Origin: a virus
Taxonomy: Duplodnaviria; Heunggongvirae; Uroviricota; Caudoviricetes
Length of the DNA: 43,830 nucleotides
IMG/VR virus record: IMGVR_UViG_2839610755_000005
Strand: one strand, 5' to 3'
In this document: piece after piece, positions 30,001 through 33,000 of the stretch
Position numbering within the stretch: the first letter of the stretch is position 1
Layout of the letters: the number at the start of each line of letters is the position of its first letter
Made by a program: the position numbers

Positions 30001-33000
30001 GGCATTCACATCAAAGGAGAAGAGCATGGAAATAAAACCAGAAGATGAGTTAAGCAATATCGTTTTATTTCCGGTAAAAGAGGATGACCCACGTAATCAG
30101 GTTAATTTTCTTTATGAGCCATCGGAAAGAGCATATTGTCATCACGCCTCTGTTCGGGTTGACGAAAAAGAGCGTCAGGTCCGCTGTAAAATCTGCGGTG
30201 CAGTTGTGGAGCCATTTGACTGGATGCTCTCTGTGGCGAAAAGAGAAACCAGACTGGCAGATGATGTAAGGATCTTGCGCCAGGAGGAACGGGAAAGGCG
30301 GAGAAATATAGAAAAGCTAATTCAGATTGAGCGTAACGTGAAAGCGCGGATACGCAGGGTGACAAAATCCAGAACTGAATAATTAAATTTAGCTCTGTTA
30401 AAAATTTAATCCTTAACCGGAGGTATATCAATGTCAAACGCACAGAAAGTTATTAACGCTGAAAAATATAACGAGTGGGTGAAAAAGTTCTCAGAGCAGA
30501 TTTTTAAAATTACTGGCGACGAGAATGCGGCAAAAAATGAATTAGAGCCGTGGACACCTGAAGGTGTCGACCCAAATTATTGCTGGTGGGATGTTGATCC
30601 AGTTGATGCTGCAAATGAAGCTATGAGTTATCACAACGATTAATGTCAGGAGGCCGCCCGAAAGGGCGGTAATGAAAAGTGACTGAATTAACCAAAGAGA
30701 AATTAATCGAAGAAGCCAAATTAAAAATAGCGATTGCGAAATGCTACCCCAATTCAGGGATGGCACGGGTAGAGGGCGAGTTATTCAAAATTGCACTGGC
30801 ATCGCTGGAAGCAGAACCGATAGCGTGGGAATGCGGTGAAAACATAATCCTGTTTAACCCTGACACAGTTGAAGCATACGCAAAACGTGCGGAAATATCA
30901 CCTAAACCACTATTCTCCGCGCCGCCAGCGCTGGTAGTGCCTGATAAGTTGCCGCGTGAATACAGAAACGGTTGGCCTCTTGCGTATAGTGATTATGCTG
31001 AAGGCTGGAACGACTGCCGCGAAGCCATGCTTCAGGGAGATAAATCATGATTAATCGTATCAAGCTGGAGCACATCCTCGAATATGCTAGGCAGCAGAGG
31101 CATATTGGTCAGCATTGTAAAATTCCACCAGGAGATATGGTTGAAATCATGGAGATTGCTATGCGCAAGGCTGGCAATTCTCCGGTAACTCCGGATGGTT
31201 GGATAAGCTGTAGTGAGCGAATGCCGAATACCAAAACAGCCGTTCTTGTTGCCGTGGAGTTTGACAGGAAAGGTGACTGGCGAATGAAATGGGCTACTTA
31301 CATCCCGGGGCATCCTGACGCTAATGATGGGTGGATAATTCCTGGTGCGTCGTGGAAACCGTCACACTGGATGCCGCTACCAGAACCGCCGCAGGAGGTG
31401 CGCCAATGATCTGGCCTGAAGCCTTTGCAATTACAGGCGTTGCTATAGCTATTGATTTTTTAGTATATGTTATTTGTCGGTGGGGGTAAAAACGTTCGCC
31501 GGGATTCACACCAAAGGAGGGAATATGTCGGATGATATTTCACTGGCAATGGAAGGTGCGCTGGCTGTTATTGCTGTTGTGGGCGTTTACTGCCTGGTTG
31601 TGTTTTTGATGGATCGACTAGGGAACTGAATTCATTACGATATGGGAATTCCCATATCGGGTAAAAACGGTTTGCGGTAAAGCGAGAGTTAAGTAGAATT
31701 GCTGCGGGTGCTTGAGGCTATCTGCCTCGGGCATGAACACCAACGGCAGATAGAGAAAAGCCCCAGTTAACATTACGCGTCCGGCAAGACGCTTAACATT
31801 AATCTGAGGCCATATCTATGCTCTACACACGTAGGTTAGCCTCTTACGTGCCGAAAGGCAAGGAGAAGCAGGCTATGAAGCAGCAAAAGGCGATGCTAAT
31901 CGCCCTGATCGTCATCTGTTTAACCGTCATAGTGACGGCACTGGTAACGAGGAAAGACCTCTGCGAGGTACGAATCCGAACCGGCCAGACGGAGGTCGCT
32001 GTCTTCACAGCTTACGAACCTGAGGAGTAAGAGACCTGGCGGGGGAGAAATCCCTCGCCACCTCTGATGTGTCAGGCATCCTCAACGCACCCCACTTAAC
32101 TCGCTTCGGCGGTTTTTTGTTGTTTATTTTCGGTGAGCGTGATGCATCTGGTTGTACCGATGTGGCTGGCTGATTCTGTTATTCAGGTGGTTTATTGCTG
32201 TTGATTGGCATGTCTTCACGGCTAGAATCGAGGCTCTTAAGTAGCGCGCAGGGATAAGAGGGATGGCCCCCATAAGAGGGATGGCCCCCATAAGGGGAGG
32301 TGTTTATAGTTCATGGGATTTTTGTTATGAACGATAAGGAATTAATTGCTGCGCTTTCTATACCAGGTAATTATGAAGTAATAGTTCTTGGGAATGGTGA
32401 GTTTATCGTAATGCCATTGCCATCTGATGTTATTCTGATCAGCAAAGAATCGCATGCGGATTCGGTCAGTTACTTCAGCATTAAAAGAGACTAGATTATA
32501 ATGCTGTAGTAAAGCCAGCCTGAACAACTGGCGTCTGTCGCACCATTACGAGGATAGTAGTGGTGCATTACAAGAAACTTAACAATTCTGATAATTCAGC
32601 CGTCTTTGCCAGCAGGCACGGGCGGTGTTCTCATGCATTCAAATCTGACTGGTTCCAGCATGACCCATGCACTGAAGAACAGGCCGAATGGCTGATTCAG
32701 TGCTACCGCAGGCGTGGTTACGAGTTTCAGAAAGATCTCAGCTTCGATCGTCGTCACTGGATAATCTCCGCCAGGCTCCCTTATTCCGAACGCCCACCGC
32801 GTCCGTCCCGCACATTCCAGCAGCGCATCTGGAGGTAACGTGCGGGTATTACTTCGACCTGTTCTGGTACCGGAACTCGGTCTGGTTATCGTTAAGCCAG
32901 GCCGTGAATCAATGTCAGTATTCCATAACGGCAGAATATTGGTGGAGCCGGAACCGAAAAACATGCGCGGTCTGCCGTCCGGAGTCGTTCCTGCCGTTCG

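Follow-up and report, generated by a model that had tools for sequence, protein, structure and literature searches.

The window analysed here, 43,830 nucleotides of viral DNA, very probably carries at ∼31671–32118 a complete hok/mok/sok type I toxin–antitoxin cassette of the hokC/hokD (gef/relF) subgroup, which on its sequence features is the best overall explanation of this locus. The cassette belongs to a lambdoid prophage of Escherichia coli O157:H7, where it lies in the nin region, on the strand of the early rightward operon and co-directional with early transcription (Table 1). A preliminary description had read the locus as encoding a type I toxin of the Hok family behind a structured leader, and this reading is upheld by the Pfam match of the toxin, by the Rfam covariance model, by 95% DNA identity to the hokW/mokW/sokW locus of phage 933W and by the predicted tac–fbi pairing. 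The cassette is already known, and this copy adds nothing new to a textbook type I system. Two small open reading frames (ORFs) directly upstream are treated separately below.

Table 1. Features of the hok/mok/sok locus and the small ORFs upstream of it (window coordinates)
Feature	Position	Strand	Details
27-aa hydrophobic ORF, MIWPEAFAITGVAIAIDFLVYVICRWG	31406–31489	+	AGGAGG 31393–31398, 7 nt before ATG
10-bp direct repeat, GGTAAAAACG	31485–31494 (left), 31660–31669 (right)		copies bracket the 34-aa ORF module
34-aa hydrophobic ORF, MSDDISLAMEGALAVIAVVGVYCLVVFLMDRLGN	31525–31629	+	AGGAGG 31515–31520, 4 nt before ATG
Perfect 22-nt palindrome, CGATATGGGAATTCCCATATCG	31638–31659		between 34-aa ORF and hok promoter
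Putative hok promoter	31671–31699	+	TTTGCG 31671–31676, 17 nt, TAGAAT 31694–31699; read from sequence
tac element, GGGTGCTTGAGG	31706–31717	+	5′ end of hok mRNA; coincides with Rfam model position 1
Conserved hairpin, 9-bp stem	31718–31753	+	arms CTATCTGCC 31718–31726 and GGCAGATAG 31745–31753
Predicted Sok antisense RNA	31826→31756	−	∼70 nt; 15-nt single-stranded 5′ tail, long hairpin, U-rich end
Putative anti-SD/ucb region, AAGCCCCAG	31757–31766	+	pairs mok SD (full-length fold) or tac (nascent and one truncated fold)
mok	31818–32030	+	70 codons, in frame with hok; SD GAGG 31806–31809, 8 nt upstream
Putative Sok promoter	31833–31861	−	TTGCCT 31861→31856, 17 nt, TAACCT 31838→31833; inside mok
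hok toxin gene	31875–32030	+	51 aa; SD AGGAG 31861–31865; RefSeq name hokD
fbi element, CCTCAACGCACCC	32080–32092	+	complementary to tac, one bulged C
Intrinsic terminator-like hairpin	32100–32118	+	CTCGC-TTCG-GCGG then T6

Toxin, mok and leader RNA

The 51-aa Hok/Gef-type peptide proposed earlier is an unambiguous family member: it matches Pfam PF01848 (HOK_GEF) with E = 2.9e-23 and 81.6 bits against a cut-off of 22, matches PHROG 251 (‘MokW-like host killing’) at 2.8e-33, and is 100% identical to K-12 HokD (UniProt HOKD_ECOLI). The long in-frame extension that had been seen upstream of it is equally real, giving a 70-aa ORF that is the known mok gene, an identity the preliminary description did not recognise. 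This 70-codon frame is kept in all seven of the close relatives checked, with codons 2–6 variable, and the same ORF is annotated mokW in 933W. At this locus, RefSeq annotates the toxin CDS alone, with neither mok nor Sok.

The leader matches Rfam RF01794 on the hok-sense strand over the full model (positions 1–157), scoring 111.7 bits where the gathering threshold is 59. The putative hok promoter is weak and would place the mRNA start near G31706; its TAGAAT and the adjoining TGCTGCGGGTGC are nearly invariant across 73 cassettes. A consensus promoter and terminator scan called neither the hok promoter, the Sok promoter nor the terminator, and the four promoter-like matches that it did return are either not conserved in relatives or located elsewhere.

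When the full-length RNA is folded to minimum energy (z = −5.9), tac and fbi form 12 pairs with a duplex energy of −20.6 kcal/mol, and 98.7% of the cells of this helix are paired among 72 distinct relatives; because the helix is almost invariant, it shows little covariation. The 9-bp leader stem noted earlier falls within the first helix of the Rfam match. A perfect 9-bp inverted repeat with arms that close is expected by chance, on a rough estimate, ∼0.1 times in 715 nt, and the stem is further supported by compensatory changes in relatives, from A-U to G-C in 6 distinct sequences and from C-G to U-A in 2, with C-G/U-G variation in 35. Across the alignment of relatives, 13 pairs are changed on both sides compared to 5.2 ± 1.8 in shuffles, a covariation that is modest because the sampled relatives are close.

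The folds also suggest how the leader might switch. In the full-length fold, GCCCCAG (the upstream CCCC box) is paired with CUGAGGC and covers the mok ribosome-binding site; in the nascent fold and in the fold truncated at 32060, GGG.GCUU is paired with AAGCCCC, giving a tac/anti-SD stem. We assign the probable anti-SD/ucb role of this region after R1 hok (PMC9841398). Folds of the truncated mRNA depend on the chosen 3′ end, with truncations at 32066–32081 folding otherwise and one of five endpoints giving the textbook tac/ucb stem.

Sok, related loci and the question of decay

The predicted Sok RNA folds at −28.6 kcal/mol (z = −5.4), leaving a single-stranded 5′ tail whose sequence is complementary to the region where mok starts. 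Its geometry is that of annotated sokW (933W) and sokC (K-12), each of which overlaps the first 9 nt of mok, and its promoter site matches the positions of the annotated sokW and sokC promoters. A Sok-like antisense promoter had been anticipated within 31640–31820; a putative promoter does exist, but outside that range and inside mok. Both of its hexamers are identical in the window and 933W and nearly invariant across the 73 cassettes. The consensus scan passed over this promoter because its −10 hexamer, TAACCT, matches at only three of six positions; the −10 region of sokW has been mutated experimentally (PMC8621323).

The same cassette is found in the Stx2 phage 933W and Sakai prophage Sp5 as hokW/mokW/sokW, with 95.4% DNA identity from the hok promoter to fbi, the same 70-codon in-frame mok and the same Sok hairpin, and in both the window and 933W a 27-aa-family ORF ends at the cassette edge. 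The two differ in that the toxins diverge C-terminally in 4 of their 51 residues, the Sok 5′ tail/mok start region is another allele, and homology stops directly after fbi, so the terminators differ. The 34-aa ORF module is also absent from 933W, where a 27-aa-type ORF runs directly into the TAAAAACGGTTTGCGG of the hok cassette. Whereas the cassette described here lies in the nin region, that of 933W lies beyond int/att and is co-directional with early transcription after circularisation.

In the K-12 Qin prophage, the relBE-hokD locus (relF) encodes an identical 51-aa toxin, its DNA is identical to that of the window over a stretch that starts at the hok SD and takes in fbi and the terminator, and its downstream neighbours (DUF968, rusA, Q region) are similar. 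Upstream of the hok SD, in contrast, relBE replaces everything: hok promoter, tac, anti-SD, mok start and Sok gene. The window has the full regulatory leader and, as had been stated, no relBE: the upstream genes are DUF551 and the small ORFs, and K-12 homology starts only at the hok SD.

Two further known systems are comparable. In the chromosomal hokC (gef)/mokC/sokC locus of E. coli, mok is in frame with hok, the tac core GGGTGCTTGAGGCT is the same and Sok has the same overlap with mok, but from tac to the hok ATG its leader measures 150 nt, shorter than the 169 nt here, the toxin sequence differs, and IS186 adjoins the K-12 locus. The R1 hok/sok system (parB) shares the architecture and logic of tac/fbi, anti-SD, mok–hok overlap and an antisense Sok transcribed from a promoter inside mok, with fbi directly before the terminator. 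It differs in being plasmid-borne and serving post-segregational killing, in having mok out of frame with hok (as read from the plasmid copy used as R1 reference), and in its toxin, which is only distantly similar to the Hok encoded here; HokW and R1 Hok share 44% identity (PMC8621323). The R1-reference plasmid copy was truncated by IS150 upstream and a Klebsiella copy had no leader, and these therefore gave a comparison of the 3′ (fbi/terminator) part only.

Against the reading as a complete cassette, one could argue that this hok copy no longer works and is decaying, as with most K-12 chromosomal hok loci, and that only its embedding in a prophage keeps it. Some evidence does point this way. 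Most relatives have a stronger terminator, CCCGCTTCGGCGGG, and compared to their consensus the stem here carries two weakening substitutions (CTCGC/GCGGT instead of CCCGC/GCGGG) and one G adjoining fbi is missing. Each O157:H7 genome has 8–10 matching places, therefore any one copy would be redundant; an internal stop makes the adjoining DUF968 gene a pseudogene; and K-12 hokD has lost its entire leader. We nonetheless consider decay improbable. All defining elements are intact, namely the hexamers of both promoters, tac, fbi, the anti-SD, the two ORFs (mok and hok) and the Sok hairpin; the toxin sequence equals HokD, and many independent O157:H7 genomes carry the same DNA at 100% identity, annotated hokD.

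Two putative small membrane-peptide ORFs upstream of hok

Two tiny hydrophobic ORFs had been described upstream of the toxin, and both are found at the expected lengths of 27 and 34 aa. The strong ribosome-binding site attributed to the second is indeed present, but not as the only one, since the 27-aa ORF also has a perfect AGGAGG. The ATG of the 27-aa ORF shares nucleotides with the stop codon of DUF551, the gene upstream (ATGA), an overlap found in 132 of the 136 copies of its family whatever gene lies upstream, and the ORF is probably translationally coupled to DUF551. Its family carries the motif MxWPEAF..VY[SV]ICRWG, and its frame is kept at 65% nucleotide identity to the 933W copy, with an in-frame 6-nt indel; pN/pS is 0.30 in frame and 1.07 and 1.77 in the other frames. 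The family is rarely annotated, and PGAP makes no call for the member described here.

The 34-aa ORF, which is RefSeq WP_001278450.1 (‘hypothetical protein’), sits in a ∼175-bp module between the 10-bp direct repeats. Within its subfamily pN/pS is 0.18, compared to 0.70–1.77 for other frames of the small ORFs. The palindrome that follows it is conserved with the 34-aa subfamily and absent from a related 30-aa subfamily; an intrinsic terminator at this place can be discounted, since neither strand has a T-run after the palindrome. A minus-strand promoter-like match that overlaps the 34-aa start codon (31549→31522) was likewise rejected as the source of an antisense RNA, with a −35 that is altered in one relative and absent in the 30-aa subfamily. 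In other phages, the prophage slot of the small ORFs holds type II toxin–antitoxin-like gene pairs.

Taken together, both ORFs are predicted to be separate, genuine-looking genes for single-pass membrane peptides in the same early operon. The preliminary description had suggested that such peptides can act as toxins or exclusion factors, for which nothing was found in support. Pfam has no family for either ORF, NCBIfam gave SecE alone for the small ORFs (E = 0.069, below its cut-off), PHROGs gave one weak match for the 27-aa ORF (phrog_38566, E = 0.01), and neither ORF shows detectable homology to a protein that has been characterised. Searching the literature by peptide sequence and by RefSeq accession gave no match.

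The 30-aa relatives of the 34-aa peptide share 44–50% identity with it; phages Tritos and HannyBb carry them at the same spot, upstream of hok. The 30/34-aa family was collected by tblastn against phages and by degenerate DNA patterns that contain no hok sequence. Of the 117 IMG/VR copies that could be assessed, 111 (∼95%) have hok after them, its mRNA beginning at a constant distance from the ORF, either +42 or +74 to +76. Five of six matches in species-representative genomes are also followed by hok. Although divergence between the two subfamilies is strong (pS of 0.60), both abut hok. This linkage, together with a peptide that forms one hydrophobic helix as in many small toxins and modulators, raises the idea that the 30/34-aa peptide, and perhaps the 27-aa one, is a Hok partner (an immunity factor or a modulator acting in the membrane) or else a small toxin of its own. 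Prophage hok modules would then be three-part membrane-peptide modules with an unrecognised third component; as a further possibility, the Sok 5′ tail and the start of mok, which come in discrete alleles, could form a specificity code.

We regard this as unlikely on present evidence. Only about a third of hok cassettes have a 30/34-aa ORF, and STEC299 and one Shigella genome have the ORF but no hok. The distance from the ORF stop to the hok −35 is ∼10 nt in the 30-aa subfamily and ∼40 nt here, so close that common descent would by itself keep the two tightly linked, with no need for a functional tie. Members of the family occur in Escherichia/Shigella prophages only, no toxin family is matched, and the sole antisense promoter-like site is not conserved in relatives. 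Least likely of all is that both small ORFs are chance, untranslated frames in an intergenic spacer, as their very short lengths, the lack of a family beyond the one PHROG match and the missing PGAP call for the 27-aa ORF might suggest, against which stand the perfect AGGAGG at a suitable distance from both, frames kept over 35% nucleotide divergence and an in-frame indel, the low in-frame pN/pS and the prevalent ATGA overlap.

Proposed working of the cassette and its implications

Returning to the complete type I cassette, its working can be proposed by analogy with the R1 hok/sok mechanism, as summarised in PMC9841398, and with hokW/sokW. The full-length hok mRNA would be translationally silent, with its 3′ end slowly trimmed. 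Trimming would lead to refolding, in which tac pairs with the anti-SD box and mok is exposed; Sok would bind the exposed region and RNase III would cleave the duplex. Once Sok falls, mok and then hok would be translated, and Hok would enter the inner membrane and depolarise the cell. That the toxin kills or arrests cells and that Sok neutralises it has been shown for HokW, which is 92% identical to the toxin described here, and sokW (PMC8621323). In the same study, HokW is located in the inner membrane, sokW vanishes after induction with mitomycin C, a loss that depends on RecA, and phage yield is halved without the hokW-sokW locus, which experimentally establishes hokW-sokW as a type I toxin–antitoxin pair that aids phage release (PMC8621323).

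From the orientation of the cassette, we infer that on prophage induction antiterminated early transcription would cross it in the hok sense and run head-on into the Sok promoter. Such head-on transcription would lower Sok and supply hok-sense RNA, and this would explain the induction-dependent Hok production that has been reported for hokW.

The locus shows hokD in its full ancestral form, the K-12 leader having been lost to relBE, in the same pathogen in which the sister copy hokW-sokW has been studied. The small ORFs add two conserved, unstudied membrane peptides, one of them nearly always linked to hok. Were the 30/34-aa peptide truly a third component, its role might be to adjust the insertion of Hok into the membrane or the moment of lysis, or to protect the lysogen, and a specificity code in Sok and the mok start, if real, would insulate the co-resident hok/sok copies of one genome from each other.

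The hok cassette and its relatives

The 51-aa peptide encoded in the feature under study is a Hok toxin: it matches Pfam HOK_GEF (E = 2.9e-23) and PHROG 251 'MokW-like host killing', is identical letter for letter to UniProt HOKD_ECOLI, and carries the RefSeq label 'type I toxin-antitoxin system toxin HokD'. All observations of the preliminary description hold, with both small upstream ORFs, the Hok peptide, its in-frame extension and the 9-bp leader stem (arms at 31718-31726 and 31745-31753) located, though the extension had gone unrecognised as the known mok gene. The strong ribosome binding site ascribed to the second small ORF is present, but not only there, both ORFs having a perfect AGGAGG. 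A search for an antisense promoter had been suggested for 31640-31820; the putative Sok promoter instead lies beyond that interval, on the minus strand.

Features of the cassette and Rfam matches elsewhere in the window
Feature	Position	Strand	Details
27-aa ORF	31406-31489	+	AGGAGG at 31393-31398
34-aa ORF	31525-31629	+	AGGAGG at 31515-31520
hok promoter (putative)	31671-31699	+	TTTGCG-N17-TAGAAT, read from sequence; start near G31706
mok, 70-codon ORF	31818-32030	+	SD GAGG at 31806-31809
Sok promoter (putative)	31861->31833	-	TTGCCT (31861->31856)-N17-TAACCT (31838->31833), read from sequence; start at 31826
hok, final 51 codons of mok	31875-32030	+	SD AGGAG at 31861-31865
Terminator-like hairpin + T6	32100-32118	+	just 3' of fbi
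ALIL pseudoknot (IS3-family frameshift signal)	2202-2318	-	Rfam match
DicF antisense RNA	25224-25275	-	Rfam match
STnc100 sRNA	36807-37007	+	Rfam match
AgvB anti-GcvB sRNA	37010-37071	-	Rfam match; adjoins STnc100, opposite strand

The same cassette, annotated as hokW, mokW and sokW, occurs at ∼95% identity in phage 933W, with homology from ∼31662 to ∼32098. The DNA that hokD of the K-12 Qin prophage has in common with the window runs from the hok SD to the terminator only; upstream, relBE takes the place of the promoter, tac (the 5' end of hok mRNA), the mok start and Sok, so the window carries the complete form of hokD. The earlier statement that no relBE accompanies the locus was thus right, relBE upstream of hokD belonging to Qin. 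As in K-12 hokC/mokC, mok is in frame with hok, whereas it is out of frame in R1, as read from the plasmid copy used as reference (L012). From its predicted start, Sok overlaps mok over the first 9 nt of that gene, as the annotated sokW of 933W and sokC of K-12 do. The terminator stem reads CTCGC/GCGGT here versus CCCGC/GCGGG in most relatives, and the G that follows fbi (the 3' element pairing with tac) in relatives is missing (32093), a variant also found at another locus (L123); the weaker stem and the missing G would count against full activity of this copy.

Leader RNA folding

Rfam RF01794 matches 31706-31880 of the hok-sense strand with 111.7 bits (gathering score 59); the match stops at the hok AUG, and what the model captures in practice is therefore the leader of hok. 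Its name is 'sok antitoxin', yet the true Sok RNA is the reverse complement of part of the match. In folding predictions, Sok has a 15-nt free 5' tail and a long hairpin (-28.6 kcal/mol, z = -5.4). In the predicted fold of the full-length hok mRNA (31706-32124, z = -5.9), the 12 nt of tac pair with fbi, CCTCAACGCACCC at 32080-32092, with a duplex energy of -20.6 kcal/mol, and the mok SD pairs with GCCCCAG (31760-31766). For nascent RNA and for RNA ending at 32060, the predicted partner of tac is instead AAGCCCC (31757-31763), with the 9-bp-stem hairpin enclosed, as is described for the translatable, trimmed R1 hok mRNA (PMC9841398). Because other truncation endpoints gave different folds, this predicted switch is graded as consistent with the R1 model and not as a demonstration of it.

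Across 73 aligned cassettes the structure is 94.7% paired, and in 13 pairs both partners have changed; shuffled alignments gave 5.2 ± 1.8 such pairs, with none of 500 shuffles reaching 13. The 9-bp stem changes from A-U to G-C in six distinct sequences, and the tac-fbi helix is nearly invariant.

Small ORFs upstream of hok

Curated family models left the 27-aa and 34-aa ORFs unmatched apart from one weak match, and a literature search turned up nothing on the peptides; both nevertheless look like genes. The 27-aa family (MxWPEAF...VY[SV]ICRWG) has a pN/pS of 0.30 in frame versus 1.07 and 1.77 in the other frames, and between the window and 933W its frame is preserved at 65% nucleotide identity with an in-frame 6-nt indel. 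Its start codon and the stop codon of DUF551, the gene before it, overlap as ATGA, an arrangement found in 132 of 136 family copies irrespective of the gene upstream. The next element is hok in ∼72% of copies; in those without hok a strong terminator comes next, and after it gene pairs on the opposite strand or other cargo, including unrelated small genes. Read by eye, the peptides of these pairs look like type II TA systems of the ParD/ParE or HigB/HigA kind. In relatives of the 27-aa ORF (e.g. loci L391, L301, L298 and L315), the site directly 3' of it thus acts as a slot for cargo.

The 34-aa ORF (RefSeq hypothetical protein WP_001278450.1) is related to a 30-aa subfamily (...IYCLxVxLMDRLSD) that immediately precedes hok in phages Tritos and HannyBb. 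For the family overall pN/pS is 0.49, and for the 34-aa subfamily alone 0.18. Searching IMG/VR with a degenerate pattern that did not include hok returned 120 copies, and in 111 of the 117 assessable ones the hok mRNA start lies at +42 or +74 to +76 after the ORF. Species-representative genomes gave six matches only (Escherichia albertii, E. ruysiae, Shigella flexneri and three small MAG contigs), five with hok. The MAG contigs (L394, L395 and L397), short and binned to Collinsella, 'Scatousia' and Haemophilus, carry an E. coli-phage 30-aa ORF and hok leader, and are probably binning contamination. Of the hok cassettes, by contrast, only about one in three has a 30/34-aa family ORF beside it. 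The distance from ORF stop to hok -35 is ∼10 nt in the 30-aa subfamily and ∼40 nt in the window, and the tight linkage may reflect this short distance together with a narrow host range; a functional tie to hok is possible but unsupported.

Copies of the direct repeat GGTAAAAACG flank the 34-aa module (∼31490-31660). At the end of the module, before the hok promoter, lies a perfect 22-nt palindrome, CGATATGGGAATTCCCATATCG (31638-31659), which contains an EcoRI site and is conserved together with the 34-aa subfamily. As no T-run follows, the palindrome does not stand out as a terminator; it might bind a protein or stabilise an RNA 3' end. In another group of hok loci (L075, L035, L015 and L042), a 59-72-aa hydrophobic ORF ending ...CIEYWR stops shortly before the cassette, making a third kind of small membrane ORF beside hok.

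Prophage setting and proposed working of the cassette

Many E. coli O157:H7 chromosomes match the 1.6 kb around the feature with 100% identity; mok, Sok and the 27-aa ORF have no RefSeq annotation there. The locus lies in a lambdoid prophage, flanked by replication genes and DUF968, rusA and antiterminator genes, all on one strand. RefSeq lists the downstream DUF968 gene (32840-33889) as a pseudogene interrupted by a stop codon, a hint that the prophage is partly decayed. At 32254-32289, upstream of a 55-aa ORF (32327-32494), an 18-nt unit, ATAAGAGGGATGGCCCCC, is tandemly duplicated; K-12 Qin carries only one copy there, with slight differences.

HokW is toxic and localises to the inner membrane, and is neutralised by sokW, transcribed from its own promoter, partly via RNase III and Hfq; upon mitomycin C treatment sokW is lost and HokW appears in a RecA-dependent manner, and absence of the hokW-sokW locus halves phage yield (Takada et al., PMC8621323). 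By analogy, the window copy would behave in the same way. In both phages the cassette has the same orientation as N-antiterminated early transcription (here within the pR/nin operon), so that induced read-through would run into the convergent Sok promoter and also provide hok-sense RNA, a step that we add to the published account. In the 933W record, the minus strand holds both hokW and the pL operon, and after excision and circularisation int and L0142...hokW are co-linear, placing the cassette downstream of int; this could explain the RecA-dependent induction of HokW.

The finding is correct, and the element is of a known, annotated and experimentally studied kind. The sole variable stretch of the hok leader within the cassette is 31810-31835, comprising the Sok 5' tail and mok codons 1-6, where roughly nine discrete alleles are shuffled among cassettes otherwise 95-99% identical, one of them with a different Sok hairpin in which pairing is kept. 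E. coli genomes with any match have a median of two matching places and a maximum of 14, with 8-10 in the listed O157:H7 genomes. This allele pattern is what would be expected if Sok-target recognition diversifies among many co-resident copies, and 31810-31835 may be a specificity determinant that insulates co-resident hok/sok copies from one another.
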